From the IMG/VR virus record IMGVR_UViG_2671180294_000014: a DNA stretch of 33,339 bases. One strand, 5' to 3'. Source of the stretch: a virus. Its lineage: Duplodnaviria > Heunggongvirae > Uroviricota > Caudoviricetes. How positions within the stretch are numbered: the stretch's first letter is position 1; every line of letters starts with the position of its first letter. The translations under genes and the position numbers were made by a program. The notes beneath the pieces were generated by a model. It was given only the letters and a program-made list of their open reading frames with translations. It was not told the DNA's origin and did not search any database. This document shows positions 1-18,329 of the stretch, in pieces.

Positions 1-1011
1 TTATAACGTCACTCCGCCTTTTAGTGGATTCAGAGCGACGGCATTTTGCAGATAGTCAGGCGCAAGGTGCGCATAGGCCATCGTCTGCTGAATGCTCGCA
101 TGTCCCAGAATCTGTTGCAGTGCGATTATATTGCCCCCATTCATCATGAAATGGCTTGCGAATGTATGCCGCAGGATGTGGGTTGCCTGATTGGGTGGTA
201 TATCAGGTTTCACTCTGCGTAAAATCCCGCAAAATTTCTCATAATCAACTTTGAATAATTTGGCGCTGGCCTCCTCTTTAACTTTTTTCTCCAGTTCCTC
301 AGAAATCGGCACGGTTCGCTTTTTACCGTTTTTGGTTTTCAGGAAGGTAACCCTGCAATTTGTAATCTGTGCTGGTTTTAGCGTGGCAACTTTCGTCCAT
401 CTTCCTCCAGTGCTCAGACATAAAAGCGCGACAAGTAAGTCATCACCAGCCAAAACATTTAACAGTTTTTCGATTTCTGCTTTTTCCAGGAACGTCATTT
501 CAGGGTTGGCCTCCGCCAGTGGCGGCAGTCCGTGAATTGGGTGTTGCCCGGAAAATTCATCCAATTGAATTAATTTTGTGAACATGCCGGATAATCTGTA
601 CATGTCACGGTTTATCGTTGCGGCACTGATACCATCACGTAGTCGCATGGAACGATAATCCATCAAAGCCCTTTTGCTCATCCTGCTCACTGGTATATCA
701 CCTATGCCGCTGATGGTTTTGAGTAGATGATTAAACTCTTTTGTTCCATGCTCGTGGTTTTGCCCGTGATATTTCCACCAGATGTCCAGCAACTCACTCA
801 AAGTCCGGCGGTCTGCTCGCTGGCCTCCCCATTCTTTCTGACTGGCATTGGCGATTGTGTATCGCTCAAATGCTAGTGCTTCAGCTTTTCTTTCGAATTT
901 CCTGCGGATGCGTTTTCCGTCGCGACCGCGAGGTCTAATGTCCACTTCATAGCGACCATCATCGAGCTTCTTAATTGCCATAAGAAAGCCCTCCGGCGCT
1001 GTATTCACCAT
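1..1011 (-). CDS. int: Phage integrase (tyrosine recombinase), P2 Int-like, 336 aa
   Basis: Full ORF ending at the window edge. The C-terminal catalytic region ...ATHILRHTFASHF...LGHASIQQTMAYAHL has the H-x-x-R and Tyr motifs of tyrosine recombinases. Its position next to the C repressor matches P2 organisation. Confidence 0.93.
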   Translation of the reverse strand: MVNTAPEGFLMAIKKLDDGRYEVDIRPRGRDGKRIRRKFERKAEALAFERYTIANASQKEWGGQRADRRTLSELLDIWWKYHGQNHEHGTKEFNHLLKTISGIGDIPVSRMSKRALMDYRSMRLRDGISAATINRDMYRLSGMFTKLIQLDEFSGQHPIHGLPPLAEANPEMTFLEKAEIEKLLNVLAGDDLLVALLCLSTGGRWTKVATLKPAQITNCRVTFLKTKNGKKRTVPISEELEKKVKEEASAKLFKVDYEKFCGILRRVKPDIPPNQATHILRHTFASHFMMNGGNIIALQQILGHASIQQTMAYAHLAPDYLQNAVALNPLKGGVTL

Positions 1012-1050
1012 CTTGGTAGCAAATGGTGAAAATGTAATCTTTATATAGAG

Positions 1051-1344
1051 TTAGCCAATCCTTTTCGCGGAGTGGTTGGACTCTGTTGACTCTGGCCCAA
1101 TGTGCGCGAGAGCCGGTGCGATTTGTCCTGCGTCCGGCGCGGTTTTATCTGTCATAAGCCATAGAGCATATTTTTGGAATGTGGGATGCATAGTGATTTT
1201 TAGCAAAGCTGTGCCACCGGGTTCAAAGTTTCCTCCTTCATATTTTTTAAGTGTGCTTAGCGGTAACTCTATGATTTCACAGAATTTTGATTGGCTTAGC
1301 CCTTCAGCCTCACGCAAGGCCTTAATCTTTTCGCTTAATTTCAT
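1051..1344 (-). CDS. C: Immunity repressor C (short HTH repressor, P2 C-like), 97 aa
   Basis: Small ORF divergent from cox. Its N-terminal HTH-like region is LSQSKFCEIIELPLSTLKKYEGG. The size and position match P2 C. Confidence 0.85.
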   Translation of the reverse strand: MKLSEKIKALREAEGLSQSKFCEIIELPLSTLKKYEGGNFEPGGTALLKITMHPTFQKYALWLMTDKTAPDAGQIAPALAHIGPESTESNHSAKRIG

Positions 1345-1374
1345 TTGACATGGTGCCTATATAGGGACTAAATT
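1345..1374 (+). promoter_or_regulatory. Candidate early promoter Pe: TTGACA (1345-1350), 18-nt spacer, TAAATT (1369-1374), reading towards cox
   Basis: The -35 consensus hexamer sits directly next to the C start codon. A -10-like hexamer lies 18 nt downstream. The arrangement resembles the P2 face-to-face Pe/Pc switch. Confidence 0.4.
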
Positions 1375-1404
1375 CCCTCAAAACTGGAACCTATATAGGT
1401 TCCA
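1356..1404. promoter_or_regulatory. Candidate C-repressor operators: palindrome CCTATATAGG occurs twice (1356-1365, and 1390-1399 inside the perfect 18-bp palindrome GGAACCTATATAGGTTCC at 1387-1404), 35 bp centre to centre
   Basis: Read directly from the sequence. One copy lies in the spacer of the candidate Pe and the other just downstream. Paired operators flanking and overlapping Pe are expected for a P2-type switch. Confidence 0.55.
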
Positions 1405-1426
1405 TTGATTTGAGAATAAACCAGCG

Positions 1427-1451
1427 TCTAAACGGTTTTGAGTGGTTTAGA
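1427..1451. repeat. Inverted repeat TCTAAAC-N11-GTTTAGA just upstream of cox. It is a possible Cox or regulator site, or an RNA hairpin.
   Basis: Seven-bp perfect arms at 1427-1433 and 1445-1451. Confidence 0.3.
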
Positions 1452-1465
1452 AAGGGCTGGATCCT

Positions 1466-1753
1466 ATGAGGGTACCATATATGGACGCTGAAAATTATGT
1501 GATTCAGTATCCGCTTGATGCGGTTCATGTGGATAAATTTGCTGATTTATTAGGGAAGCCAAAGACAGCCGTCAGTGAAATGGTGAAGGCAAATAAATTA
1601 CCAATTATTGAATTGCGTGATCCTTGCAAACCGAAGGCTCGTGCCGGTGAAAAATGGGTTTTCATTCCTGAGTTTAATCGCGCTGTACGTGAGGCGTTTT
1701 ATAACCGACCGGTTGAACAGCGTGATGCATGGCTTTTGTGGATGGGGTTGTGA
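1466..1753 (+). CDS. cox: Cox-like excisionase and transcriptional repressor, 95 aa
   Basis: First gene of the rightward early operon, divergent from C. An AAGGG Shine-Dalgarno lies 9 nt upstream. The protein resembles P2 Cox/Apl-type proteins (…KLPIIELRDP…AGEKWVFIPEFN…). Confidence 0.85.
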   Translation: MRVPYMDAENYVIQYPLDAVHVDKFADLLGKPKTAVSEMVKANKLPIIELRDPCKPKARAGEKWVFIPEFNRAVREAFYNRPVEQRDAWLLWMGL

Positions 1754-1755
1754 TT

Positions 1756-1926
1756 ATGAATGAGCCGCGTTGTATTGCTCAGTTATTGCGTAACGAAAGC
1801 CCTAGGGCGATTGACTTCACCATCACCCACGGGAAGGGTCGCAAGGGAATCATTATCCGCACCAAAAAACAGAGTCCGTTAAAAAAGGCTCTGACCTTTC
1901 TGAAAAGCCGGAGGGTCTGGAAATGA
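1756..1926 (+). CDS. Small hypothetical early protein (P2 orf78 position), 56 aa, with the internal start MNEPRC
   Basis: The ATG lies 2 nt after the cox stop. The 1729 start of the ORF track overlaps cox and is less likely. Confidence 0.45.
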   Translation: MNEPRCIAQLLRNESPRAIDFTITHGKGRKGIIIRTKKQSPLKKALTFLKSRRVWK

Positions 1927-2423
1927 CAGTGATGACGCTCAATCTCGTCGAAAAACAGCCAGCAGCTATGCGCCGGATAATTGGTAAGCATCTTGCCGTC
2001 CCTCGTTGGCAGGATACATGTGATTATTATAATCAGATGATGGAGCGCGAACGGCTAACAGTTTGCTTTCATGCGCAGTTAAAACAACGTCACGCAACGA
2101 TGCGTTTTGAAGAAATGAACGACGTCGAACGTGAACGGCTGGTTTGTGCAATTGATGAATTGCGTGGGGCATTCTCAAAACGCCGTCAGGTTGGCGCAAG
2201 TGAGTATGCATATATTAGTTTTTTAACAGTCAGTCAGCGTCGTACTTTATTTATGCATGCCGGATTGACTGAAAAAGAATTCAATCAGCCATACTGGCGA
2301 ATTAATGAAGAGTCATGTTACTGGCGTGATGCTTTATTCCGTGCATTACGTGAACTATTCAGTCTGTTTGAGTATGCACCGACAATTCTGACGTCGGTAA
2401 AACCAGAGCAATATTTGCATTAA
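1923..2423 (+). CDS. B: Replication protein B (helicase-loader-like), 166 aa
   Basis: MTVMTLNLVEKQPAAMRRIIGKHLAVPRWQDTCDYYNQMMERERL matches the P2 gpB N-terminus and length. Confidence 0.9.
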   Translation: MTVMTLNLVEKQPAAMRRIIGKHLAVPRWQDTCDYYNQMMERERLTVCFHAQLKQRHATMRFEEMNDVERERLVCAIDELRGAFSKRRQVGASEYAYISFLTVSQRRTLFMHAGLTEKEFNQPYWRINEESCYWRDALFRALRELFSLFEYAPTILTSVKPEQYLH

Positions 2424-2453
2424 ATAATTAACCAGAGTTTTTAACGCACTTAA

Positions 2454-2711
2454 TTGTGCGGGGCTTCTTTTTGCCTGGAGAAAGTCATGCATACAGTTTC
2501 TGAAAATCAGTGCGGTAAATACGCATTACTGCTGCAACAGGCCAGAACCGAAGCACAGGCCGACGCTGCGACGCGCTTTTCTTCTCATCTTGACGCCATG
2601 ATTCGCCATATCACAAAGGCGGAGTTATCCCGCGTGGAGATAGTCGAGCTGCTCAGTCAGGAGTCGGAAAAATTTCACAATATCGGATTGTCTCGCGGGG
2701 AGGTGCTTTGA
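2454..2711 (+). CDS. Hypothetical early protein (P2 orf80 position), 85 aa
   Basis: ORF lying between B and A in the early operon. Confidence 0.6.
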
Positions 2712-3010
2712 TGTCCTGTTCTCATTCAGTTGTATTACTGAATAACGCCTTAAAAATCGCCGTTATGAAAAATGGCGACTTGTCTCTTATTCAACTTTGT
2801 CTTGATAAAGAAAAACGCGACATCACTGAATCTGTTATCGCGATTTATCAGAATGAATTAAACCTCCTGTCTGATGTGGTCAATTTACTTGTTAAACGCG
2901 CTGTATTCCACAAGCAAATTTCCTCAGTGGATGAACTGACAAAATTAACGACAGAACTTGCCAGTTATTGCGCTGATGTATCCAGGAAACTTAACGATAA
3001 AAGGAGCTGA
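2708..3010 (+). CDS. Hypothetical early protein (P2 orf81 position), 100 aa
   Basis: ORF whose start overlaps the previous stop. Confidence 0.6.
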
Positions 3011-3012
3011 TA

Positions 3013-3237
3013 ATGCCGGACAACATAGATTTTATTCAGGAACAACAGGCTGAATTACTGGAGCGCCAGATTAACGCGGCAAGGGTAAAACATTGCGGTG
3101 CTTCTGCGCTGGTTTGCGAAGAGTGTGACGCGCCAATTCCTGCTGCCCGTCGTGCGGCTTATCCGTCAGCCACGCGTTGTGTTTCCTGTCAGTCAGTCTT
3201 TGAAGCAAAAAACAAACATTACCGGAGAACGGCATGA
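3013..3237 (+). CDS. TraR/DksA-family C4 zinc-finger protein (P2 orf82-like), 74 aa
   Basis: CEEC...CVSC four-cysteine motif. Confidence 0.8.
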   Translation: MPDNIDFIQEQQAELLERQINAARVKHCGASALVCEECDAPIPAARRAAYPSATRCVSCQSVFEAKNKHYRRTA

Positions 3238-3509
3238 GTATTCGTATTGAAATTGGCGAACGTTATGTCGTTACCAGTGACAGCTTCCAGTTTATTCTCC
3301 ACGAGAAAAAGAGAGCGGAAAGCGGTAAAAACGCCGGTCAGGAATGGCTGGCGGTGGTTGGTTATTACCCGAAATTAAGCCAGCTCGTTTCCGGCCTGAT
3401 GCATCACGATATTCTGACCGGAAGCGCAAAGTCTTTTGCTGATTTAAACGCGCAGGTTGAGCAACTCAGCAAGCGTTGTTCAGAGGCTTTTGGCTCATAT
3501 GGCCGTTAA
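3234..3509 (+). CDS. Hypothetical early protein (P2 orf83 position), 91 aa
   Basis: ORF with overlapping stops and starts. Confidence 0.55.
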   Translation: MSIRIEIGERYVVTSDSFQFILHEKKRAESGKNAGQEWLAVVGYYPKLSQLVSGLMHHDILTGSAKSFADLNAQVEQLSKRCSEAFGSYGR

Positions 3510-5796
3510 AGCCTCCGGGCGTTTTGTCCCTCCGTCAGCATTTGCTGCAGGCACCGGTAAGGCGTTTACCGGTGCTTATGCATGGAACGCGCCACGCGAG
3601 GCTGTCGGGCGCGAAAGACCCCTTACACGTGACGAGATGCGTCAGGTGCAAGGTGTTTTATCCACGATTAACCGCCTGCCTTACTTTTTGCGCTCGCTGT
3701 TTACGTCACGCTATGACTACATCCGGCGCAATAAAAGCCCGGTGCACGGGTTTTATTTCCTCACATCCACTTTTCAGCGTCGTTTATGGCCGCGCATTGA
3801 GCGTGTGAATCAGCGCCATGAAATGAACACCGACGCGTCGATGCTGTTTCTGGCTGAGCGTGACCACTATGCGCGCCTGCCGGGAATGAATGACAAGGAG
3901 CTGAAAAAGTTTGCCGCCCGTATCTCATCGCAGCTTTTCATGATGTATGAGGAACTCAGCGATGCCTGGGTGGATGCGCATGGCGAAAAAGAATCGCTGT
4001 TTACGGATGAGGCGCAGGCTCACCTCTATGGTCATGTTGCTGGCGCTGCACGTGCTTTCAATATTTCCCCTCTCTACTGGAAAAAATACCGTAAAGGACA
4101 GATGACCACGAGGCAGGCATATTCTGCCATTGCCCGTCTGTTTAACGATGAGTGGTGGATTAGTCAGCTTAAAGGCCAGCGTATGCGCTGGCATGAGGCG
4201 TTACTGATTGCTGTCGGGGAGGTCAATAAAGACCGTTCTCCTTATGCCAGTAAACATGCCATTCGTGATGTGCGTGCACGCCGCCAGGCAAATCTGGAAT
4301 TTCTTAAATCGTGTGATCTCGAAAACAGGGAAACAGGCGAGCGCATCGACCTTATCAGTAAGGTGATGGGCAGTATTTCTAATCCTGAAATTCGCCGGAT
4401 GGAGCTGATGAACACCATTGCCGGTATTGAGCGTTACGCCGCCGCAGAAGGTGATGTGGGGATGTTTATCACGCTGACCGCGCCGTCAAAGTATCACCCG
4501 ACACGTCAGGTTGGAAAAGGCGAAAGTAAAACCGTCCAGCTAAATCACGGCTGGAACGATGAGGCATTTAATCCAAAGGATGCGCAGCGTTATCTCTGCC
4601 GTATCTGGAGCCTGATGCGCACGGCATTCAAGGATAATGATTTACAGGTCTACGGTTTGCGAGTCGTCGAGCCACACCACGACGGAACGCCGCACTGGCA
4701 TATGATGCTTTTTTGTAATCCACGCCAGCGTAACCAGATTATCGAAATCATGCGTCGCTACGCGCTCAAAGAGGATGGCGACGAAAGAGGAGCTGCGCGA
4801 AACCGTTTTCAGGCAAAACATCTTAATCGGGGCGGTGCTGCGGGGTATATCGCGAAATACATCTCAAAAAATATCGACGGCTATGCACTGGATGGGCAGC
4901 TCGATAACGATAGCGGCAGACCGCTGAAAGATACTGCCGCGGCTGTTACCGCATGGGCGTCAACGTGGCGCATTCCGCAATTTAAAACGGTTGGCCTGCC
5001 GACAATGGGGGCTTACCGTGAACTACGCAAATTGCCTCGCGGCGTCAGCATTGCTGATGAGTTTGACGAGCGCGTCGAGGCTGCACGCGCCGCCGCAGAC
5101 AGTGGTGATTTTGCGCTGTATATCAGCGCGCAGGGTGGGGCAAATGTCCCGCGCGATTGTCAGACTGTCAGGGTCGCCCGTAGTCCGTCGGATGAAGTTA
5201 ACGAGTACGAGGAAGAAGTCGAGAGAGTGGTCGGCATTTACGCGCCGCATCTCGGCGCGCGTCATATTCATATCACCAGAACGACGGACTGGCGCATTGT
5301 TCCGAAAGTGCCGGTCGTTGAGCCTTTGACTTTAAAAAGCGGCATCGCCGCGCCTCGGAGTCCTGTCAATAACTGTGGAAAGCTCACTGGTGGTGATACT
5401 TCGTTACCGGCTCCCACACCTTCTGAGCACGCCGCAGCAGTGCTTAATCTGGTAGATGACGGTGTTATCGAATGGAATGACCCGGAGGTTGTGAGGGCGC
5501 TCAGAGGTGCATTAAAACACGGACTGAGAAGACCAAACCGTCAGCAAAGAAACGGAAGCCCGTTAAAACCGCATGAAATAGCGCCATCGGCCAGACTGAC
5601 CCGGTCGGAACGAATGCAAATTACCCGTATCCGCGTTGACCTTGCTCAGAACGGTATCAGGCCGCAGCGATGGGAGCTTGAGGTGCTGGCGCGTGGGGCA
5701 ACCGTAAATTATGACGGGAAAAAATTCACTTACCCGCTCGCTGATGAGTGGTCGGGATTCTCAACAGTATTAGAGTCAAACTCAGTGAAGCGTTAA
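3499..5796 (+). CDS. A: Replication initiation endonuclease A (rolling-circle, P2 gpA-like), about 765 aa
   Basis: Large ORF containing the rolling-circle Rep active-site motif YIAKYISKNIDG with paired tyrosines. The likely start is MAVKASGRF at 3499, with an AGAGG Shine-Dalgarno. The ORF is open from 3457. Confidence 0.92.
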   Translation: MAVKASGRFVPPSAFAAGTGKAFTGAYAWNAPREAVGRERPLTRDEMRQVQGVLSTINRLPYFLRSLFTSRYDYIRRNKSPVHGFYFLTSTFQRRLWPRIERVNQRHEMNTDASMLFLAERDHYARLPGMNDKELKKFAARISSQLFMMYEELSDAWVDAHGEKESLFTDEAQAHLYGHVAGAARAFNISPLYWKKYRKGQMTTRQAYSAIARLFNDEWWISQLKGQRMRWHEALLIAVGEVNKDRSPYASKHAIRDVRARRQANLEFLKSCDLENRETGERIDLISKVMGSISNPEIRRMELMNTIAGIERYAAAEGDVGMFITLTAPSKYHPTRQVGKGESKTVQLNHGWNDEAFNPKDAQRYLCRIWSLMRTAFKDNDLQVYGLRVVEPHHDGTPHWHMMLFCNPRQRNQIIEIMRRYALKEDGDERGAARNRFQAKHLNRGGAAGYIAKYISKNIDGYALDGQLDNDSGRPLKDTAAAVTAWASTWRIPQFKTVGLPTMGAYRELRKLPRGVSIADEFDERVEAARAAADSGDFALYISAQGGANVPRDCQTVRVARSPSDEVNEYEEEVERVVGIYAPHLGARHIHITRTTDWRIVPKVPVVEPLTLKSGIAAPRSPVNNCGKLTGGDTSLPAPTPSEHAAAVLNLVDDGVIEWNDPEVVRALRGALKHGLRRPNRQQRNGSPLKPHEIAPSARLTRSERMQITRIRVDLAQNGIRPQRWELEVLARGATVNYDGKKFTYPLADEWSGFSTVLESNSVKR

Positions 5797-5882
5797 CTCA
5801 ATAAATATGAGTTTATAAGTTAGGCCTCGAGATTTTGTAGAAAGGGATGTATACTGAGTATCGTATAGATTTGGAGTGAGTG

Positions 5883-6905
5883 ATGACTGTAAAGGTGATA
5901 GACCTTTTTTGTGGTGCTGGCGGATTAACTCATGGTTTGCAGCTTGCGGGGCTTGATGTCGTTGCAGGCATTGACCTTGAGGGGGAATGTAGGTTTCCCT
6001 ATGAAAGAAACAATAAATCTAAGTTTATTGAGCAAGATATCGCTAAAGTAACAAAAGAGGAACTGCTGAGGCTTTATGGTGATGCGTCTGTAAAAGTATT
6101 GGCAGGATGCGCACCTTGCCAACCTTTTTCAAAATATACTCAAGGAAAAGATAAGGCTGATGATAAAAAATGGCCTCTTCTTTATGAGTTCGAACGTTTA
6201 ATTCGCGAAGTATCTCCAGAAATCGTAACAATGGAGAACGTTCCTGATGTAACTAAACATAAAGTTTATAATGATTTTTATAATTCATTGTTAAAGTTGG
6301 GCTATTATGTTTGGGCGTCTAAGATTGATTGTGTCGAATATGGAATCCCACAAAACCGTTCCCGTCATGTATTGTTGGCCTCAAAATTGGGGGCGATTGA
6401 GTTAGTAAAACGTGACGATGTTATTTTGAAAACAGTTAGAGATGCAATAGGAAATCTTCCTCCATTAGAAGATGGCCAAACAGATCCAAATGATATATTA
6501 CATAGAGCCAGTAAATTAAATCCGATTAATAAAAAAAGAATTATACACTCTGTTCCTGGTGGTACATGGAAGGACTGGCCGAAAGAGTTGGTTGCCGCTT
6601 GTCATATGAAATCCAGCGGTAAAGGGTATGCTAGTGTATATGGGCGCATGTCTTGGGATAAGCCAAGTCCAACAATTACAACTCTTTGTTATGGTTTCGG
6701 GAATGGGCGTTTTGGACATCCAGAACAGCATAGAGCGATTTCTCTTAGAGAGGCTGCTTTATTGCAAACTTTCCCGATGGATTATATTTTTGTAGAAGAC
6801 AAAAACAAGTTTGTTATAAGAAGTATTGGGAAAATGATAGGTAATGCTGTTCCTGTGGAACTAGGAAAAGCAATTGGGCAATCAATCAAGAACCATTTAG
6901 AATGA
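5883..6905 (+). CDS. DNA (cytosine-5)-methyltransferase, 340 aa, hotspot cargo
   Basis: The m5C-MTase motifs are all present: I DLFCGAGG, IV GCAPCQPFS (catalytic PCQ), VI MENVPDV, VIII QNRSRHVLLAS, and X IGNAVPV. A GGAG Shine-Dalgarno lies 6-7 nt before the ATG (the ORF track starts at a GTG at 5880). The gene is visibly AT-rich compared with the phage backbone. Confidence 0.92.
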   Translation: MTVKVIDLFCGAGGLTHGLQLAGLDVVAGIDLEGECRFPYERNNKSKFIEQDIAKVTKEELLRLYGDASVKVLAGCAPCQPFSKYTQGKDKADDKKWPLLYEFERLIREVSPEIVTMENVPDVTKHKVYNDFYNSLLKLGYYVWASKIDCVEYGIPQNRSRHVLLASKLGAIELVKRDDVILKTVRDAIGNLPPLEDGQTDPNDILHRASKLNPINKKRIIHSVPGGTWKDWPKELVAACHMKSSGKGYASVYGRMSWDKPSPTITTLCYGFGNGRFGHPEQHRAISLREAALLQTFPMDYIFVEDKNKFVIRSIGKMIGNAVPVELGKAIGQSIKNHLE

Positions 6906-6911
6906 TAAAAT

Positions 6912-6928
6912 GGCCTGCTTTACAGGCC
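6912..6928. terminator. Bidirectional hairpin terminator GGCCTG-cttta-CAGGCC between the convergent MTase and HEPN genes
   Basis: Six-bp GC stem flanked by an A-run on one side and T residues on the other. Confidence 0.6.
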
Positions 6929-6934
6929 TTATAA

Positions 6935-7615
6935 CTATTGTTCTAAATATTCATTATTATTTATATAGTGCTCTATATTATTCACGATAGCATCAAGATA
7001 GGCGATTACTTCTAATGAAATATTCTCTAAGTCCTGATATGAAACATTTTTTCCAATCTCAGCAAATGATACATTGCCATGAGATAAATCATTACGATGT
7101 TGTTTAACAGTGGCTAATTTTTCACCATGTTTAGTGTGAGTGTAATCGGAATGTGTAGAAAAACCATATATTTTCGATTTTTCTTTGATTTCCTCTCTAT
7201 CAATATTTCCTGAGAATATTTTCTTTTTGTTGAACGTGCCATAAGATATACCGCAAGATATACCTTTGGTAAGGTGATTAACTAAACTTTCAACATTTAC
7301 AGATTCATTTTTTAATCTTTTTAATATTTCTGACCTGAGATTTTTCCTGAGTTTGTCAAATTCTACGTTTCTATCATAAATAGTCTCATGAATAAGGCAG
7401 ATAGCTTCTCTCATTGTTGATTCAATGAGGTTATATAACAGTATATATACTGCTCCCTTTAGAGTTTTTCGTGATTGAGCAGTAATGGAGAACTTATGTT
7501 CTTTATCATCAGCTGATATCAGTTCTGCACCGGCATACTCAATAAATTTCAAAAGATCCAAATAGGCCAAGATCTCTCCTGACCTTTCGTCAAAATCCTC
7601 ACGAAAACGATCCAT
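6935..7615 (-). CDS. HEPN-like (putative RNase) protein, 226 aa, downstream partner of the DUF262 gene
   Basis: KQHRNDLSHG contains an R-x4-H HEPN-type motif near the C-terminus. The size is typical of small stand-alone HEPN proteins. The gene is AT-rich. It is translationally coupled to the upstream gene (…GAT TAA C ATG, with GAGGA Shine-Dalgarno). Confidence 0.55.
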   Translation of the reverse strand: MDRFREDFDERSGEILAYLDLLKFIEYAGAELISADDKEHKFSITAQSRKTLKGAVYILLYNLIESTMREAICLIHETIYDRNVEFDKLRKNLRSEILKRLKNESVNVESLVNHLTKGISCGISYGTFNKKKIFSGNIDREEIKEKSKIYGFSTHSDYTHTKHGEKLATVKQHRNDLSHGNVSFAEIGKNVSYQDLENISLEVIAYLDAIVNNIEHYINNNEYLEQ

Positions 7616-7616
7616 G

Positions 7617-8759
7617 TTAATCCTCTAATAATTTATCCCGAACATATTCAATTCGTTCAATTACCTTCACGCGACTATTAGCTCCGTCGGAAGTGGTCAA
7701 TCGTTTGAATTCTTCTGAGCTTAGCCAATCTAAGTTCTTGGGAACAAGGTCAGGGACTTCACGTAATGCAAGTGCTGCGCCAACAGCGAGAGATTCGAAT
7801 CTAACTCGAGGTGTAGATTTTGCAGTAATAGTTTTCTTGAATCCTGCTGGGAAATAGTTTTCAACAAAAGATAGAACATTAGCAAACTCTTGTTTCATTG
7901 AGTTTTGTTTAGTTTCGTCTATATCTCGATTTTCTGACATATAGTCATTTAGAAAATCCCGTACGGAATGATCAAAGTTCTTGTACTTATCTACGTAGGC
8001 AAAGAATCTTAATGTAAATTCTAACCGTTCATCTCGTTTTTCTTTAGTCTGAGATAAAGGTGCTAATTCTTTAAATTTAGGTATTGTTGAGCATGGCTTA
8101 ATAACCTGTGTATATAAATTTGTTGAACCAAGTTCTGATCCTTTACGGACTTCCATATCTTTCAATATATCGCTGCCAGAGTTAATACGCTCAAAAAGAT
8201 CTCTACGGGTTTCTTCATTGCATTTAGAACTCAATTCTATAACGCGGACAGGAATTCTCATGAAACGACGTTGACGTGATAATGGTAAATCTTGGAATTT
8301 GAAACCATTAAGGACGTCTAAAGATTTCAGGTCTTGTAAAACTAATTCATTTTGGATAAAAGCGTGTATAGTCCTAACTCGTTGTGAGCCATCAACAATC
8401 TCAATTCGCCCATCTAAATCGGGATCTTCGGAGAGAACATCTGCTATAAATATATATGGTATAGGAAAACCCAAAATCAAAGACTCTATCAATTTTGATT
8501 GTCTTTTTTCACTCCAAACAAAATCCCTTTGATAATCAGGAACAAAGAGTTCGTTAGTATCATCCTCTAATCCGTTATGATACTTATTAACTAATAACTC
8601 AACGGTAAATTCTTTGGTCTCAAAATCCACATCCTTTTGCTCAGCACGAATTTGCTCTTCAGCGTTTTGCTTTATCACCTCTAGCTGAGCAAGCAACTCT
8701 GCTCTTTTCTTGGCATTATCTTCATTTTCTAGTTGAGATTTTAAATCAATAATGTCCAT
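7617..8759 (-). CDS. DUF262 (GmrS/ParB-like NTPase-nuclease fold) protein, about 380 aa, with an N-terminal coiled-coil
   Basis: Hallmark DUF262 motifs are FVPDYQRDFVWS and IEIVDGSQRVRT (DGQQR-type). The first ATG is at 8759, with an AAGGGA Shine-Dalgarno 7 nt upstream. The ORF track extends to a TTG at 8777. Confidence 0.85.
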   Translation of the reverse strand: MDIIDLKSQLENEDNAKKRAELLAQLEVIKQNAEEQIRAEQKDVDFETKEFTVELLVNKYHNGLEDDTNELFVPDYQRDFVWSEKRQSKLIESLILGFPIPYIFIADVLSEDPDLDGRIEIVDGSQRVRTIHAFIQNELVLQDLKSLDVLNGFKFQDLPLSRQRRFMRIPVRVIELSSKCNEETRRDLFERINSGSDILKDMEVRKGSELGSTNLYTQVIKPCSTIPKFKELAPLSQTKEKRDERLEFTLRFFAYVDKYKNFDHSVRDFLNDYMSENRDIDETKQNSMKQEFANVLSFVENYFPAGFKKTITAKSTPRVRFESLAVGAALALREVPDLVPKNLDWLSSEEFKRLTTSDGANSRVKVIERIEYVRDKLLED

Positions 8760-8944
8760 GTCTAGTTCCCTTAACAAGTGTTAAAAATTGAAGCGGATAG
8801 CATACCGCATAGATCATGAAAAATGCCATCATGTGCATGGATTTGCATGCGTCAGAAGTCGCTTTTATTGTTAGTTATCACTAGCGCTGGCGTGCTCTTG
8901 GAGTGTTCATGCAACTGCATTAAAACCGCCCCATGAAGCGGGCG

Positions 8945-8963
8945 GGCGAGGCGGGGAAAGCAC
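8945..8963. other. cos cohesive-end sequence GGCGAGGCGGGGAAAGCAC (P2-type 19-nt cohesive end)
   Basis: Exact 19-nt match to the P2 cohesive end as I recall it. It lies between the hotspot and Q, where cos sits in P2. Confidence 0.7.
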
Positions 8964-9102
8964 TGCGCGCTGGCGGTGGTGCTGATTTTATTTTCCAGCG
9001 TCTCAGCGCGTCGTGACGGCGCTTAGTCTGCCCGTTGGGCGTTGGTGTGTCTGCGGGATTTTTTGTGCGGTGATGAGCGTGTGAGGGCGTGATGGCGGGG
9101 TG

Positions 9103-9124
9103 TAAAAAAGCCGCCCGCAGGCGG
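9103..9124 (-). terminator. Rho-independent terminator of the P-Q operon (GCCGCC-tgcg-GGCGGC followed by a U-run on the minus strand)
   Basis: GC stem-loop with a T-run on the coding (minus) strand 7 nt after the Q stop. Confidence 0.7.
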
Positions 9125-9130
9125 CGATGT

Positions 9131-10165
9131 TCAGCCGTTGTCAGTGTCCAGTGAGTAGTTTTTAAAGCGGATGACCTCCTGACCGAGCCAGCCGTTTATC
9201 TCGCGGATCCTGTCCTGTAACGGGATAAGCTCATTGCGGACAAAGACCTTTGCCACTTTCTCAATATCACCCAGCGACCCGACGTTCTCCGGCTTGCCCC
9301 CCATCAACTGAAAGGGGATGCGGTGCGCGTCCAGCAGGTCAGCGGCGCTGGCTTTTTTGATATTAAAAAAATCGTCCTTCGTTGCCACTTCACTGAGCGG
9401 GATAATTTTAATGCCGTCGGCTTTCCCCTGTGGGGCATAGAGAAACAGATTTTTAAAGTTATTGCGGCCTTTCGACTTAACCATGTTTTCGCGAAGCATT
9501 TCGATATCGTTGCGATCCTGCACGGCATCGGTGACGTACATGATGTATCCGGCATGTGCGCCGTTTTCGTAATACTTGCGGCGGAACAGCGTGGCCGACT
9601 CATTCAGCCATGCAGAGTTAAGGGCGCTGAGATATTCCGGCAGGCCGTACAGCTCCTGATTAATATCAGGCTCCAGCAGGTGAAACACGGAGCCGGGCGC
9701 GAAGGCTGTCGGCTCGTTGAAGGACGGCACCCACCAGTAAACATCCTCCTCCACGCCACGACGGGTATATTTGGCCGGTGAGGTTTCCAGTCTGATGACC
9801 TTACCGGTGGTGCTGTAACGCTTTTCCAGAAACGCATTACCGAACACCAGAAAATCCAGCACAAAACGGCTGAAATCCTGCTGGGAAAGCCACGGGTGCG
9901 GGATAAACGTTGAAGCCAGAATATTACGTTTGACGTAAATCGGTGAGCTGTGATGCACGGCAGCACGCAGGCTTTTTGCCAGACCGGTAAAGCTGACCGG
10001 CGGCTCATACCATCTGCCGTTACTGATGCACTCGACGTAATCCAGAATGTCACGGCGGTCGAGTACCGGCACCGGCTCACCAAAGGTGAATGCTTCCATT
10101 TTCGGGGCGCTGGCGGTGATTGTTTTTGCCGCAGGTCGCGGTGTTTTCCCTTTTTTCTTGCTCAT
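9131..10165 (-). CDS. Q: Portal protein Q, 344 aa
   Basis: The length is identical to P2 gpQ. It is the first gene beside cos, and its start overlaps the stop of P. Confidence 0.93.
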   Translation of the reverse strand: MSKKKGKTPRPAAKTITASAPKMEAFTFGEPVPVLDRRDILDYVECISNGRWYEPPVSFTGLAKSLRAAVHHSSPIYVKRNILASTFIPHPWLSQQDFSRFVLDFLVFGNAFLEKRYSTTGKVIRLETSPAKYTRRGVEEDVYWWVPSFNEPTAFAPGSVFHLLEPDINQELYGLPEYLSALNSAWLNESATLFRRKYYENGAHAGYIMYVTDAVQDRNDIEMLRENMVKSKGRNNFKNLFLYAPQGKADGIKIIPLSEVATKDDFFNIKKASAADLLDAHRIPFQLMGGKPENVGSLGDIEKVAKVFVRNELIPLQDRIREINGWLGQEVIRFKNYSLDTDNG

Positions 10166-11937
10166 CAGTAAAACTCCAGAATGGTGGATGTCAGCGGAGT
10201 GCTGATACCGGCGGTGAGTGGCTCATTTAACAGGGCGTGCATGGTTGCCCAGGCGAGGTCGGCGTGGCTGGCTTCCTCGCTGCGGCTGGCCTCATAGGTG
10301 GCACTGCGTCCGCTGCTGGTCATGGTCTTGCGGATAGCCATGAACGAGCTGGTGATGTCGGTGGCGCTGACGTCATATTCCAGACAGCCACGGCGGATGA
10401 CGTCTTTGGCCTTGAGCACCATTGCGGTTTTCATTTCCGGCGTGTAGCGGATATCGCGCGCGGCGGGATAGAACGAGCGCACGAGCTGGAACACGCCGAC
10501 ACCGAGGCCGGTGGCATCAATACCGATGTATTCGACGTTGTATTTTTCGGTGAGTTTGCGGATGGACTCCGCCTGGGTGGCAAAGTCCATGCCTTTCCAC
10601 TGGTGACGCTCAAGTATTCTGAATTTGCCACCGGCCACCACCGGCGGTGCCAGCACCACGCATCCGGCGCTGTCGCCACGGTGTGACGGGTCGTAACCAA
10701 TCCATACCGGGCGGGAGCCGAACGGATTTGCGGCAAACGGCGCGTAGTCTTCCCATTCTTCCAGCGTGTCGACCATGCAGCGTTGCAGCTCCTCGAACGG
10801 GAACACCGATACCTTGTCGTCAACAAATTCACACATGAACAGGTTTTTAAAATCGTCGGCGCTGTTTTCGCGTTTGAGCTGCTCAATGTCGAACAATGTG
10901 CAGCCGCCTTTCAGGGCGTCCTCAATGGTGACAATCTGCCGCCACTGGCCGTCCGCACAGAGAAGACCACCGGCAAGGGCGTTATGACTGACGTCGATTT
11001 CCACACGTTCGGCGGCGCTGGCGCGTCCCCGGTTGAACAGTTCACCCGACCAGAACGGGTAGGCGTCGTGCGCCAGCGTGGACGGGGTGGAGAAATAGGT
11101 CGAGCGCAGGTGACTCTGTGAGGCCATACCTGATGCCACCTTACGCAGTACCTGAAAATTCGGGATCCAGAAAATCTCGTCGACGTACAGGTCGCCGTTA
11201 TGGCTCTGTGCGGTGTTGGAGTTGGTGCCGAGAAAAATCAGTTTTGCGCCGTTATTGCCCAGGACAATCGGGTCACCGGTCAGGTCAACGTCAACCAGAC
11301 GAGCAAAGGCGATGATGTATTCACGGAACACATACGCCTGCGTTTTACTGGCCGACAGAAAAATCTGGTTATGGCCGGTTTTCAGGGCGCGCAGCAGCGC
11401 CTCGCGGGAAAAATAAAACGTCGCGCCAATCTGGCGGGATTTCAGGATATCGCGGATGCGGTGCTCAAGCCCGGCACGATACCAGTGCAACTGATAGTCG
11501 AAAGACTGCTCAAAGAAAATCTGCTCCAGCTTTTCGATGGCCTCGTCACTGAAAAAATTCTTTTTCGGTTTGCGACGCCCGCCTTTGTTGCGGTTAGCGA
11601 TGTTCGGATTAAGGTCTGCCTCGTTGCCGGTCTGGCTGTAGCGGTTTACCCGTGCCAGTCGTTCAATCTGGCGTCCGAGCAGGTCAATTTCCTTGAAGTC
11701 ACCGCCGGTTTTCTGCGGTTTGATGATGAGCTGGGTCAGCCGCGCTTCCAGACTCATTTCGACACGGCTGATGGGGGCAACACTGTCCCAGCCGTCGCGC
11801 TGTTTCCAGCTCTGCACCGTCGGGCGTTTCATCTGCAACATGGCGGCAATCTGCGGCACGGAAAACCCCTGCCAGTACAGCAGCGCCGCCTGACGACGCG
11901 GGTCGTGTAAAAGAGTGGTGTCTGTGGTGATGGTCAT
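10165..11937 (-). CDS. P: Terminase large subunit P (ATPase), 590 aa
   Basis: Starts at MTITTDTTLLHDPRRQAALLYWQGF, which matches P2 gpP. The ORF is open from 11967. Confidence 0.93.
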   Translation of the reverse strand: MTITTDTTLLHDPRRQAALLYWQGFSVPQIAAMLQMKRPTVQSWKQRDGWDSVAPISRVEMSLEARLTQLIIKPQKTGGDFKEIDLLGRQIERLARVNRYSQTGNEADLNPNIANRNKGGRRKPKKNFFSDEAIEKLEQIFFEQSFDYQLHWYRAGLEHRIRDILKSRQIGATFYFSREALLRALKTGHNQIFLSASKTQAYVFREYIIAFARLVDVDLTGDPIVLGNNGAKLIFLGTNSNTAQSHNGDLYVDEIFWIPNFQVLRKVASGMASQSHLRSTYFSTPSTLAHDAYPFWSGELFNRGRASAAERVEIDVSHNALAGGLLCADGQWRQIVTIEDALKGGCTLFDIEQLKRENSADDFKNLFMCEFVDDKVSVFPFEELQRCMVDTLEEWEDYAPFAANPFGSRPVWIGYDPSHRGDSAGCVVLAPPVVAGGKFRILERHQWKGMDFATQAESIRKLTEKYNVEYIGIDATGLGVGVFQLVRSFYPAARDIRYTPEMKTAMVLKAKDVIRRGCLEYDVSATDITSSFMAIRKTMTSSGRSATYEASRSEEASHADLAWATMHALLNEPLTAGISTPLTSTILEFY

Positions 11938-12003
11938 GAATACCTCGCCGTGATGAATACACGGCAAGGCTACTGAGTCGCGCCCCGCGATTCGCTAATG
12001 TGC

Positions 12004-12024
12004 TGTTGTGTCAGTGATAAACCA
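12004..12024. promoter_or_regulatory. Late-promoter activator (Ogr) site candidate, TGTTGT-gTCA...ACCA / TGT-N12-CCA, in the divergent P/O control region
   Basis: Partial dyad symmetry of the TGT-N12-ACA class. A near-identical element lies upstream of FI at 25503-25523. Confidence 0.45.
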
Positions 12025-12110
12025 TCCGGGACTGATGGCGGAGGATGCGCATCGTCGGGAAACTGATGCCGACATGTGACTCCTCTAATCACTATTCAGG
12101 ACTCCTGACA

Positions 12111-12965
12111 ATGGCAAAAAAAGTCTCAAAATTCTTTCGTATCGGCGTTGAGGGTGACACCTGTGACGGGCGTGTCATCAGTGCGCAGGATATTCAGGAA
12201 ATGGCCGAAACCTTTGACCCGCGTGTCTATGGTTGCCGCATTAACCTGGAACATCTGCGCGGCATCCTGCCTGACGGTATTTTTAAGCGTTATGGCGATG
12301 TGGCCGAACTGAAGGCCGAAAAGATTGACGATGATTCGGCGCTGAAAGGCAAATGGGCGCTGTTTGCGAAAATCACCCCGACCGATGACCTTATCGCGAT
12401 GAACAAGGCCGCGCAGAAGGTCTACACCTCAATGGAAATTCAGCCGAACTTTGCCAACACCGGCAAATGTTATCTGGTGGGTCTGGCCGTCACCGATGAC
12501 CCGGCAAGCCTCGGCACGGAATACCTGGAATTCTGCCGCACGGCAAAACACAACCCCCTGAACCGCTTCAAATTAAGCCCTGAAAACCTGATTTCAGTGG
12601 CAACGCCTGTTGAGCTGGAATTTGAAGACCTGCCTGAAACCGTGTTCACCGCCCTGACCGAAAAGGTGAAATCCATTTTTGGCCGCAAACAGGCCAGCGA
12701 TGATGCCCGTCTGAATGACGTGCATGAAGCGGTGACCGCTGTTGCTGAACATGTGCAGGAAAAACTGAGCGCCACTGAGCAGCGCCTCGCTGAGATGGAA
12801 ACCGCCTTTTCTGCACTTAAGCAGGAGGTGACTGACAGGGCGGATGAAACCAGCCAGGCATTCACCCGCCTGAAAAACAGTCTCGACCACACCGAAAGTC
12901 TGACCCAGCAGCGCCGCAGCAAGGCCACCGGTGGTGGCGGTGACGCCCTGATGACGAACTGCTGA
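12111..12965 (+). CDS. O: Capsid scaffold protein O, 284 aa
   Basis: MAKKVSKFFRIGVEGDTCDGRVISAQDIQEMAETFDPRVYG matches P2 gpO. The upstream in-frame extension to 12045 is unlikely to be translated. Confidence 0.92.
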   Translation: MAKKVSKFFRIGVEGDTCDGRVISAQDIQEMAETFDPRVYGCRINLEHLRGILPDGIFKRYGDVAELKAEKIDDDSALKGKWALFAKITPTDDLIAMNKAAQKVYTSMEIQPNFANTGKCYLVGLAVTDDPASLGTEYLEFCRTAKHNPLNRFKLSPENLISVATPVELEFEDLPETVFTALTEKVKSIFGRKQASDDARLNDVHEAVTAVAEHVQEKLSATEQRLAEMETAFSALKQEVTDRADETSQAFTRLKNSLDHTESLTQQRRSKATGGGGDALMTNC

Positions 12966-13023
12966 CCGGCGTCAGTCAGTCCGGGAAAACCTTCACGATT
13001 AACCCTTAATTTCAGGAAAAACT

Positions 13024-14096
13024 ATGCGCCAGGAAACCCGCTTTAAATTTAATGCTTACCTGTCCCGTGTTGCCGAGCTGAACGGCATCGACGCCGGTGA
13101 TGTGTCGAAAAAATTCACCGTTGAACCGTCGGTCACCCAGACCCTGATGAACACCATGCAGGAGTCCTCTGACTTTCTGACCCGCATCAACATTGTGCCG
13201 GTCAGTGAAATGAAAGGGGAAAAAATTGGCATCGGTGTCACCGGCTCCATCGCCAGCACCACCGACACCGCCGGTGGCACCGAGCGTCAGCCGAAGGACT
13301 TCTCGAAGCTGGCGTCAAACAAGTACGAATGCGACCAGGTTAACTTCGATTTTTATATCCGCTACAAAACGCTTGACCTGTGGGCGCGTTATCAGGATTT
13401 CCAGCTCCGTATCCGTAACGCCATTATCAAACGCCAGTCCCTTGATTTCATCATGGCCGGTTTTAACGGCGTGAAGCGTGCCGAAACCTCTGACCGCAAC
13501 AGTAATCCGATGCTGCAGGATGTGGCGGTCGGCTGGCTGCAGAAATACCGAATGAAGCCCCGGCGCGCGTGATGAGCAAGGTCACTGACGAGGAAGGCCG
13601 CACCACCTCTGAGGTTATCCGCGTGGGTAAGGGCGGTGATTATGTAAGCCTCGATGCACTGGTGATGGATGCGACCAACAACCTGATTGAACCTTGGTAT
13701 CAGGAAGACCCTGACCTTGTGGTGATTGTGGGGCGTCAGCTACTGGCGGACAAGTATTTCCCTATCGTCAACAAGGAGCAGGATAACAGCGAGATGCTGG
13801 CCGCTGACGTCATCATCAGCCAGAAACGCATCGGTAACCTGCCGGCGGTACGCGTCCCGTACTTCCCGGCGGATGCGATGCTCATCACGAAGCTGGAAAA
13901 CCTGTCCATCTACTACATGGATGACAGCCATCGCCGCGTGATTGTGGAAAACCCGAAACTCGACCGCGTGGAGAACTACGAGTCAATGAACATTGATTAC
14001 GTGGTGGAGGACTACGCCGCCGGTTGTCTGGTGGAAAAAATTAAGGTCGGTGATTTCTCCACACCGGCTAAAGCGACCGCAGAGCCGGGAGCGTAA
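13024..14096 (+). pseudogene. N: Major capsid protein N, split into two frames (13024-13572 and 13569-14096) by an apparent 1-nt deletion near 13549-13551
   Basis: The two adjacent ORFs total 357 aa, the length of P2 gpN. Restoring one nucleotide in TACCG-AATGAAGCC gives …QKYRNEAPARVMSKVTDEE…, a continuous N-like protein. This is either a genuine inactivating mutation or a sequencing error. Confidence 0.75.
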
Positions 14097-14099
14097 CCG

Positions 14100-14843
14100 A
14101 TGACGAGTCCCGCACAGCGCCACATGATGCGGGTCTCGGCAGCGATGACCGCGCAGCGGGAAGCCGCCCCGCTGCGACATGCAACTGTCTATGAGCAGAT
14201 GCTGGTCAAGCTGGCCGCAGACCAGCGCACACTGAAAGCGATTTATTCAAAAGAGCTGAAGGCCGCGAAAAAACGCGAACTGCTGCCGTTCTGGTTGCCG
14301 TGGGTGAACGGCGTGCTGGAGCAGGGCAAAGGTGCACAGGATGACATTCTGATGACGGTCATGCTGTGGCGTCTGGATACCGGCGATATTGCCGGTGCGC
14401 TGGAGATTGCCCGTTATGCCCTGAAGTACGGTCTGACCATGCCGGGTAAACACCGCCGCACCCCGCCGTACATGTTCACCGAGGAGGTGGCGCTTGCGGC
14501 CATGCGCGCTCACGCTGCCGGTGAGTCTGTGGATCCCCGCCTGCTGACGGACACCCTCGAACTGACCGCCACGGCTGACATGCCTGATGAAGTGCGCGCA
14601 AAGCTGCACAAAATCACCGGTCTGTTTCTGCGTGACGCTGGTGATGCCGCAGGTGCGCTGGTACACCTGCAACGTGCGACACAGCTCGACTGTCAGGCAG
14701 GCGTCAAAAAAGAGATTGAACGACTGGAGCGGGAGCTGAAACCGAAGCCGGAGCCGCAGCCCAAAGCGGCCACCCGCACTCCGCGTAAGACCCGGAGCGT
14801 GACACCGGCAAAACGTGGACGCCCGAAAAAGAAAGCCAGTTAA
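14100..14843 (+). CDS. M: Terminase small subunit M, 247 aa
   Basis: Length and position match P2 gpM. The C-terminus is Lys/Arg-rich. Confidence 0.88.
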   Translation: MTSPAQRHMMRVSAAMTAQREAAPLRHATVYEQMLVKLAADQRTLKAIYSKELKAAKKRELLPFWLPWVNGVLEQGKGAQDDILMTVMLWRLDTGDIAGALEIARYALKYGLTMPGKHRRTPPYMFTEEVALAAMRAHAAGESVDPRLLTDTLELTATADMPDEVRAKLHKITGLFLRDAGDAAGALVHLQRATQLDCQAGVKKEIERLERELKPKPEPQPKAATRTPRKTRSVTPAKRGRPKKKAS

Positions 14844-14942
14844 CAACCGAATGCGCCCCGCGCCAGGGCGGCACGCCGGTCAGTGACGGTGAATCACCTG
14901 ACACTGCACCGGCGTCCACCGCCCGACTTTTCAGAGGTAGTC

Positions 14943-15452: not shown

Positions 15453-15655
15453 TGAAGACCTTTGCGCTACAGGGCGACACGCTCGACGCCATTTGTGTTC
15501 GGTATTACGGGCGCACTGAGGGCGTGGTCGAGGCCGTGCTCGCCGCAAATCCGGGACTGGCTGAACTGGGGGCGGTGCTGCCACACGGCACCGCCGTCGA
15601 ACTGCCCGACGTTCAGACCGCGCCCGTGGCTGAAACTGTCAATCTGTGGGAGTAA
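15452..15655 (+). CDS. X: Tail protein X (LysM-like), 67 aa
   Basis: MKTFALQGDTLDAICVRYYGRTEGVVEAVLAANPGL matches P2 gpX. Start and stop overlap as ATGA with L. Confidence 0.88.
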   Translation: MKTFALQGDTLDAICVRYYGRTEGVVEAVLAANPGLAELGAVLPHGTAVELPDVQTAPVAETVNLWE

Positions 15656-15658
15656 CGC

Positions 15659-16437: not shown

Positions 16438-16451
16438 ACGGAGTAAACACC

Positions 16452-18310: not shown

Positions 18311-18311
18311 T

Positions 18312-18329
18312 TGTGCCATTCCTGACACC
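18312..18329. promoter_or_regulatory. Candidate Ogr-type late promoter element (TGT-N12-ACC, or TGT-N10-ACA) upstream of V
   Basis: TTGTGCCATTCCTGACACC lies about 50 bp before the V start. P2 late promoters carry TGT-N12-ACA near -55. Confidence 0.35.

Follow-up and report, generated by a model that had tools for sequence, protein, structure and literature searches.

The 33,339-nucleotide stretch of viral DNA analysed here (IMG/VR record IMGVR_UViG_2671180294_000014, Caudoviricetes; hereafter the window) contains a P2-like prophage that carries a C5-cytosine DNA methyltransferase gene (hereafter the methylase) next to genes for a HEPN protein and a DUF262 protein. We propose, with a probability of roughly 0.6, that the three genes make up a mobile module for defence and addiction which resembles a restriction-modification system, and that the methylase supplies its modification activity. 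At the level of comparative genomics, the gene neighbourhoods show that the methylase is functionally linked with the DUF262–HEPN pair. The three genes and the cassette that they form are as follows:

5777–8908: low-GC cargo cassette in the P2 hotspot between replication gene A (gpA) and the portal gene, with exactly three genes (methylase, HEPN, DUF262)
5883–6905, plus strand (open reading frame 5880/5883–6905): C5-cytosine DNA methyltransferase, 340 amino acids, PF00145
6935–7615, minus strand: HEPN protein of the MAE_28990 family, 226 amino acids, PF18737 (E = 5.8e-29) and PF18735 (E = 8e-9)
7617–8759, minus strand: DUF262/GmrSD_N protein, a ParB-like nucleoside triphosphatase (NTPase), 380 amino acids, PF03235 (E = 8.2e-26)

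Linkage of the methylase with the DUF262–HEPN pair

The linkage was examined from the HEPN side with 21 diverse HEPN homologues as seeds and one genome per bacterial and archaeal species. The loci of the best 80 of 474 HEPN relatives were fetched and their open reading frames searched with the three window proteins. A DUF262 gene is found immediately upstream of the HEPN gene in all loci (80/80). A full-length orthologous methylase (E of about 1e-120, 52–57% identical to that of the window) is adjacent in 35 of the 80, and a truncated methylase in one more. The methylase-bearing loci belong to Gammaproteobacteria, many Cyanobacteria, Bacteroidales (L029) and two Acidobacteria (L077 and L080), and thus span four phyla. 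A neighbour-joining tree of the concatenated DUF262 and HEPN sequences places the methylase-less loci in one derived clade inside the cyanobacteria. Outside this clade the methylase is present in 37 of 40 entries, the window and two Escherichia coli loci included, and in 34 of 37 when only the fetched loci are counted; of the remaining three, L006 lies at a contig end, L016 has a truncated methylase and L017 has lost it.

The methylase has also diverged together with its neighbours, the Pearson correlation of pairwise divergence being 0.96 with DUF262 and 0.89 with HEPN. Among the loci with all three genes, 102 have the convergent order of the window, 17 have the order methylase, DUF262, HEPN and 8 the order DUF262, HEPN, methylase. 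In every order the three genes are immediately adjacent, and their open reading frames usually abut or overlap, with overlaps in the co-directional forms. Because the linkage survives rearrangement and spans phyla, we regard methylase, DUF262 and HEPN as a functional unit.

The reverse test took alignment A2 of the methylase as query and retrieved 80 loci each from metagenomic and from viral sequences, all with a methylase that shares 51% identity or more with the window enzyme; counts were limited to the 125 loci flanked by 2 kb or more on each side. The DUF262–HEPN pair is found in 81 of these 125. Beside the 81, a GHKL-ATPase neighbour of about 650–770 amino acids is seen in 42 loci, Vsr in 24, and an SNF2 helicase of about 1150 amino acids, the DrmD of DISARM, in 17; most of the loci that lack the pair carry the GHKL-ATPase protein, and methylases without the pair are thus no orphans either. 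The GHKL-ATPase protein matches a PADLOC type II endonuclease model (E = 1.2e-96) and passes the NCBIfam equivalog NF050001 for the BbrUII/HgiDII family of restriction enzymes (738–785 bits, cut-off 550). After dereplication, 154 methylases were placed in a tree, in which pair-linked and endonuclease-linked members are thoroughly interleaved, and the closest mixed couples are 92% (L220/L221) and 87% (L189/L191) identical. Pair-linked methylases have a median identity of 56% among themselves, 55% with the endonuclease-linked and 56% with the DISARM-linked enzymes. Since pair-linked and endonuclease-linked methylases are interleaved and can be near-identical, the restriction arm has been exchanged repeatedly on one methylase orthogroup. 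Methylases up to 92% identical serve either partner, and the DUF262–HEPN pair therefore occupies the restriction slot. An earlier reading of the window, the original prediction, had as its second option a system in which the methylase modifies and the pair restricts; this option is now strongly supported by the adjacency across phyla and gene orders, the co-divergence and the near-identical methylases that accompany a real restriction enzyme.

Several observations concern the surroundings of these loci. In the derived cyanobacterial clade, the methylase-less pair often lies just downstream of aconitase B (L022, L023, L027, L030, L031, L033, L036, L042, L045 and others), a fixed site which suggests vertical inheritance and a resident two-gene system. 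A recurrent neighbour of about 890 amino acids was considered as a conserved third gene of this clade and is aconitase B itself, a housekeeping protein and not a partner; the same holds for the neighbouring SecA, ClpB and CobN. In L062, L068, L072, L076 and L078 (Microcoleus and Oscillatoriales), truncation has left about 190 codons of the DUF262 gene. One Oscillatoriales metagenome-assembled genome (RDYN01) contains a complete module (L020) as well as a second pair (L062) that lacks the methylase and has a DUF262 gene truncated in this way, and it is conceivable that the L020 methylase protects in trans.

A very-short-patch repair (Vsr) gene stands beside the methylase in 31 of 208 loci, five of them with the pair (L077, L029, L094, L108 and L162) and 26 with the methylase only; the window cassette is without Vsr. 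Such a neighbour is expected, because the deamination products of an active 5-methylcytosine (m5C) methylase need repair. In a lambdoid prophage of E. coli LR-03 (L253, 934–3768), a methylase 42% identical to that of the window is paired with a 596-amino-acid ABC-type 'ATP-dependent nuclease', weakly PtuA-like, between the Q antiterminator and the lysis genes. This nuclease is possibly another restriction arm for the methylase family.

The cassette, its proteins and the methylase target

The methylase gene of the window is intact. Its product matches PF00145 with E = 3.4e-58 and 198 bits (cut-off 22), residues 4–336 aligning with positions 2–323 of the 324 in the profile, and it passes NCBIfam TIGR00675 (dcm) with 130 bits (cut-off 100.65). 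In PADLOC its best model is DrmMII (PDLC02651, E = 1.2e-90), followed by MTase_II (E = 6.7e-89). The motifs are I (DLFCGAGG, residues 7–14), IV (GCAPCQPFS, with the catalytic Cys79), VI (ENV, residues 118–120), VIII (QNRSR, residues 157–161), IX (RAISLREAALLQTFP, residues 284–298) and X (GNAVP, residues 320–324). They are invariant among the distant orthologues of alignment A2 and also align to M.HaeIII, so that the original description of all catalytic motifs as intact holds. A GGAG lies 6–7 nucleotides upstream of the ATG at 5883, and RefSeq annotates an identical 340-amino-acid product in E. coli.

Its two partners are encoded on the opposite strand. The HEPN protein contains the Rx4H motif as RNDLSH (residues 174–179), in which R174 and H179 are nearly invariant in alignment A1 and kept in 79 of 81 family members. 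From the Pfam matches and this conserved motif it is predicted to be an RNase effector. Its AlphaFold2 model has a predicted local distance difference test (pLDDT) score of 91. No PADLOC v2.0.0 model matches it at E ≤ 0.01, and PHROGs labels it 'unknown function'. The DUF262 protein has a DGSQR motif (DGxQR type, residues 123–127) followed by a C-terminal helical domain of DNA-binding type, and the catalytic motifs of both proteins are conserved across the family. Its AlphaFold model (pLDDT 80) is similar to the sensor halves of BrxU and SspE, and also to the DUF262 protein of a DndBCDE-DndI system (PDB entry 9jfl). The DUF262 domains of characterised relatives are NTPases; they sense the modification state of DNA and control an attached nuclease; the window protein is predicted to be a sensor of DNA or of its modification. 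It contains no DUF1524 or other nuclease domain. The best 120 DUF262 homologues are all 378–395 amino acids long and match PF03235 only; none of them is fused to HEPN or to a methylase. Among PADLOC models, NsnA scores best (E = 1.7e-54, residues 17–380 over profile positions 25–376 of 385) and PD-T4-2_A reaches E = 2.5e-35. The HEPN ATG follows the DUF262 stop codon by 1 nucleotide and a GAGGA lies inside the 3' end of the DUF262 gene, an arrangement which indicates translational coupling of the two.

The original prediction placed the variable region that sets the specificity between motifs VIII and IX, and our alignments agree with this position. No part of the protein is better conserved across 34 distant orthologues than the recognition region, with an identity to the window methylase of 0.60–0.85 at residues 221–300 and 0.30–0.62 elsewhere, which suggests one or few closely related specificities in the orthogroup. 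Compared with the methylases beside NF050001 endonucleases (L189, L250 and L251), the window methylase is 56–61% identical overall and 69–79% identical at residues 221–300. M.HgiDII (CAA38941) and M.BbrUII (ABE95799) are experimentally characterised m5C methylases of GTCGAC (PMC5867850, PMC5005818), and the one characterised class 1 DISARM DrmMII, from Serratia sp. SCBI, methylates MTCGAK. These two sites share TCGA, orthogroup members stand beside BbrUII/HgiDII endonucleases and DISARM, and the recognition region is conserved; on these grounds the target is probably a TCGA-core hexamer, a proposal made through the family neighbours. GTCGAC would be the single most likely candidate. The earlier view that the specificity is unreadable from the sequence was too pessimistic given these leads, but it is right that the target is still not provable in this way.

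Other routes to the target were unhelpful. Solved structures are uninformative for specificity, as the closest chains are distant: M.HaeIII matches with E = 8e-22, and M.HhaI and Dnmt1 align in the catalytic core only. GTCGAC occurs 5 times in the window against 7.8–9.7 expected and MTCGAK 11 times against 30, and motif counts were dropped as unspecific, since most 6-bp palindromes are avoided much more strongly by the whole P2 backbone. In the backbone (1–5796, 8901–23100 and 25301–33339), many of them fall extremely far below the expectation of a fourth-order Markov model, for example GCCGGC (1 observed, 29 expected), CAGCTG (0/17), TGGCCA (0/15), GGCGCC (0/15) and CGGCCG (1/17), a pattern that fits passive anti-restriction selection acting on the P2-like genome. 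In cyanobacterial flanks the observed/expected ratio of GTCGAC is 0.13 with the methylase and 0.03 without, a comparison that does not discriminate because the site is depleted in both. GTCGAC, TTCGAA and CTCGAG are all strongly under-represented in these flanks (L009–L082), whether the methylase is present or not.

The setting of the cassette is given by the following features of the window:

1–1011, minus strand: integrase gene of the P2-like prophage
3457–5796, plus strand: gpA, PF05840 (E = 2e-123)
5827–5855, plus strand: candidate sigma-70 promoter of the methylase, TCGAGA-17-TATACT, 9/12 matches in a consensus scan
6912–6928: hairpin GGCCTG-CTTTA-CAGGCC between the convergent transcription units, a minus-strand terminator-like site with 7 pairs followed by a T-run
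9131–10165, minus strand: portal gene
10165–11967, minus strand: terminase gene

Capsid, tail-fibre and sheath genes follow at higher positions in the window. Between gpA and the portal gene the GC content drops to 0.34–0.42, against 0.52–0.58 in the flanks; the three cargo genes have 0.39, 0.32 and 0.36, compared with 0.53 for gpA and the portal gene. In alignments with other P2-like prophages the backbone homology stops at about 5776 and resumes at 8909–8916, and the cargo was therefore delimited as 5777–8908. Other prophages carry different cargo at the same gpA/portal position, for example a methylase with a BbrUII/HgiDII-family endonuclease. The GC drop and the homology breaks at this P2 site bear out the placement of the methylase within a defence hotspot. 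It was likewise correct that the pair on the opposite strand provides its only neighbours, the cargo holding just these three genes, and that a type II endonuclease is not adjacent: Pfam, NCBIfam and PADLOC reveal no type II endonuclease fold near the methylase in the cargo. The sole PADLOC REase_II match there is a weak one to the DUF262 protein (E = 9.4e-6). A classical type II restriction-modification system is ruled out, as the cargo contains no cognate endonuclease gene. The description of the methylase as orphan-looking, on the other hand, is misleading for a member of a three-gene unit. A megablast search of the INPHARED phage records gave no match.

The methylase gene converges with the DUF262–HEPN pair across the hairpin at 6912–6928, which is probably a terminator common to both transcription units. 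The candidate promoter at 5827–5855 is weak evidence, since the scan finds no more sites than in shuffled sequence. A CTCGAG (which fits MTCGAK) at 5826–5831 overlaps its predicted −35 hexamer, and the methylase may possibly regulate itself through methylation of this site. CTCGAG occurs in the window at 5826, at 7805 within the DUF262 gene and at 23877 within a second low-GC island, and not at all in the backbone. The second island (about 23000–25500) contains a 472-amino-acid open reading frame (23767–25185, minus strand) between the tail-fibre assembly gene (23125–23652) and the tail sheath gene (25596–26786), the site of the second P2 defence hotspot (Z/fun). This frame has no Pfam or PADLOC match, its only hit being phrog_13435 'unknown function' (E = 1e-293), and it is a candidate for an uncharacterised defence gene.

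Proposed mechanism and alternative explanations

In the mechanism that we propose, the methylase would place m5C on a short palindromic site of host and prophage DNA, most likely a TCGA-core hexamer such as GTCGAC. The DUF262 protein, with its ParB-like NTPase and helical DNA-binding domain, would read the DNA and its methylation state, and the translationally coupled HEPN protein with its intact Rx4H RNase motif would be the effector. Invader DNA with unmethylated sites would switch the pair on, the HEPN RNase would cut RNA, and the infection would be aborted or stalled. The pair would fill the slot that a DNA-cutting restriction enzyme holds in the sister cassettes. The proposal follows the logic of these sister cassettes and agrees with a prediction from 2013 of an RNA-targeting prong. 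Three elements are our inference: activation of the pair by unmethylated and not by methylated DNA, a complex of DUF262 with HEPN, and RNA cleavage as the output. The complete scheme is tentative and in our judgement falls a little short of even odds: a ParB-like NTPase reads m5C and gates a HEPN RNase so that unmethylated foreign DNA leads to RNA cleavage and abortive infection, this sensor–effector pair has been repeatedly swapped with BbrUII/HgiDII endonucleases and DISARM on one methylase, and the methylase-less clade has a changed trigger or a methylase elsewhere.

A number of points weigh against this scheme. The methylase-less sister clade and the two natural methylase losses argue against a strict dependence on the methylase. 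The cyanobacterial pairs of this clade, adjoining acnB, secA, clpB and cobN, keep both DGxQR and Rx4H. In L016 and L017, where the methylase is truncated or absent, the pair looks intact, so it is not obligately lethal without a neighbouring methylase. PD-T4-2, a related system of two genes, needs no methylase to defend E. coli K-12 against T4. The characterised DUF262 enzymes GmrSD and BrxU attack modified and not unmodified DNA, and in class 1 DISARM, with its related-looking DrmMII, deletion of the methylases is not autoimmune. A Foldseek search of the HEPN model against the PDB returned nothing significant. Methylation may modulate the sensor as an off-switch, with a further cue of infection also required; for the methylase-less forms, the trigger may have changed or the methylase may be encoded elsewhere.

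An unlikely alternative, although the least unlikely of those considered, is that the methylase and the pair are independent passengers. The pair would be a modification-dependent (type IV-like) system, or a methylase-independent abortive infection system like PD-T4-2, and the methylase would be an asset of the phage that pre-methylates its DNA against GTCGAC-type systems and DISARM. The persistence of intact pairs in methylase-less clades and after natural methylase losses, the function of PD-T4-2 without a methylase and the sensing of modified DNA by known DUF262 enzymes all fit this explanation. Furthermore, endonucleases and DISARM with the same methylase orthogroup occur in the same prophage hotspots, so carriage of the methylase would give cross-protection. 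Independent passengers would not, however, be expected to co-diverge with r = 0.96, to remain immediately adjacent in three gene orders and four phyla with overlapping co-directional frames, or to be exchanged as a single cargo unit, and an m5C-attacking sensor beside a linked m5C methylase would be self-toxic. Self-protection of the phage, the first option of the original prediction, may be a side benefit of the methylase; it cannot explain the co-evolution or the non-phage chromosomal contexts. Even less can be said for the third option, in which the methylase, unrelated to its neighbours, would regulate prophage genes epigenetically, its own promoter being one example. The only point in its favour is the CTCGAG at the predicted −35 hexamer. 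No conserved regulatory target was found, and the module occurs in P2-like, lambdoid and P4-like elements and in cyanobacterial and acidobacterial chromosomes. Prophage-specific regulation cannot explain conservation on such unrelated backbones, and we consider this role very improbable.

Two further explanations accept the linkage and read it differently; each of them seems to us more doubtful than independent passengers, though well ahead of a regulatory role. A guard arrangement like that of PrrC/EcoprrI would hold the HEPN protein inactive in a complex with methylase and DUF262 and free it when a phage counter-defence protein, for example an S-adenosylmethionine lyase, a DNA mimic or a methylase inhibitor, attacks the modification machinery; the methylase would be the guarded bait and not just a self-marker. 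Anantharaman et al. propose such logic in general for HEPN genes in restriction-modification loci, and it would account for the tight linkage and the co-evolution with the methylase. On the other hand, the module contains no first-line DNA-cutting enzyme to protect, the methylase orthogroup also works with ordinary endonucleases, methylase-less pairs persist, and a methylase–HEPN complex is without direct support. In an SspE-like patrol, binding of DUF262 to methylated self sites would stimulate its NTPase and license the effector against unmodified invader nucleic acid. The structural likeness to SspE and to PDB 9jfl, two proteins that sense a modification made by the host, points in this direction, and the methylase linkage supports the patrol as well as it supports a restriction-like role; the sequence features do not distinguish between the two directions of read-out. 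Such a patrol is nevertheless hard to square with intact pairs that have no linked methylase.

Known systems, distribution and significance

The neighbourhood of a MAE_28990 HEPN gene with ParB and a DNA methylase was listed by Anantharaman, Makarova, Burroughs, Koonin and Aravind in 2013 (Biol Direct 8:15, Table 1), who predicted that HEPN genes in restriction-modification loci add an RNA-targeting prong. With its PF18737 HEPN, ParB-fold DUF262 and methylase, the window is a member of this neighbourhood; the table entry came from comparative genomics only and read the ParB protein as a DNase. The HgiDII and BbrUII systems (GTCGAC; M.HgiDII with a GHKL-ATPase endonuclease) share with the window the methylase orthogroup, the P2 hotspot position and the two-arm logic. 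Their restriction arm is the NF050001 endonuclease while that of the window is DUF262 with HEPN, and for the window the GTCGAC specificity is our inference. DISARM is similar in that DrmMII is the best PADLOC model for the window methylase, orthogroup members adjoin DrmD, and methylation is the off-switch for a non-classical restriction machinery. The cargo differs from it in having no DrmA, DrmB, DrmC or DrmD and no helicase, DUF1998 or PLD protein.

Among systems with a DUF262 protein, PD-T4-2 (Vassallo et al. 2022) has the same two-gene architecture of DUF262 and HEPN, a homologous DUF262 protein and a location in E. coli mobile elements. It lacks a methylase and has a HEPN of the RiboL-PSP type (PF18735), and the best PADLOC match of the window DUF262 is NsnA instead. 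The window HEPN gives no match to any PADLOC model at E ≤ 0.01 but does match PF18735 (E = 8e-9), the Pfam family cited for PD-T4-2. The NsnA match is full-length and reflects the ParB-DUF262 plus ParBDB architecture common to the window protein and Menshen (NsnABC). Membership in Menshen as defined in PMC12065111 is ruled out despite this match: NsnB (an ABC ATPase with DUF3696) and NsnC (an inactive PIN with a nuclease) are absent, the cargo has no ATPase gene, and the effector of the window is encoded apart, as a HEPN protein. Solitary methylases sometimes occur with Menshen loci, and this led to the suggestion that ParB-DUF262 may target unmodified DNA (PMC12065111). GmrSD, BrxU and SspE share the N-terminal DUF262 domain with DGxQR. 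They cut or nick DNA and sense modified DNA (in SspE, a host-made modification), whereas the window protein is without their C-terminal DUF1524 His-Me nuclease domain and has a separate RNase-type effector and an m5C methylase as partners. In PrrC/EcoprrI a HEPN RNase is likewise genetically embedded in a DNA-modification locus. PrrC, however, is an ABC-ATPase–HEPN fusion that guards a complete type I restriction-modification system, while the window has no DNA-cutting enzyme and its NTPase is of the ParB fold.

A near-identical cassette is present at the same P2 hotspot in 9 of 5,426 complete E. coli genomes, and with a more sensitive search 179 of them prove to encode a related methylase. 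Seven of the 179 were inspected: four have the DUF262–HEPN pair, two a BbrUII/HgiDII-family endonuclease and one the ABC-type 'ATP-dependent nuclease'. Of the four pair loci, one lies in a diverged P2 hotspot, one in a P4-like satellite and two in lambdoid prophages, where the Q antiterminator and the lysis genes flank them; both endonuclease loci sit in the P2 hotspot. P2 hotspots of E. coli and Serratia fonticola contain further diverged alleles. The sequence of the window methylase is present without change on 754 contigs, Shigella sonnei among them, and the module also occurs in prophages of Klebsiella, Salmonella and Serratia and in cyanobacteria.

No defined system in PADLOC v2.0.0 or in the searchable literature covers the three-gene module, RefSeq names the three proteins individually, and in the literature on Menshen, PD-T4-2, MAE_28990 and the combination of DUF262, HEPN and methyltransferase we found no experimental study of it. 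As far as these tools show, the co-divergence of methylase and pair, the swapping of the restriction arm with BbrUII/HgiDII endonucleases and DISARM, the methylase-less sister clade and the carriage in P2, lambdoid and P4 hotspots are apparently new; the 2013 table reports none of them.

For annotation, the DUF262 and HEPN neighbours should be checked before an endonuclease-less methylase is called an orphan. The exchange of arms on one methylase orthogroup is a natural experiment in the evolution of defence by module exchange, and it points to GTCGAC or a related TCGA-core site as the substrate to test. If our interpretation is true, the module would be a compact three-gene case of an epigenetic self-mark on DNA that controls an RNA-targeting effector, and it would join the logic of restriction-modification to abortive infection.

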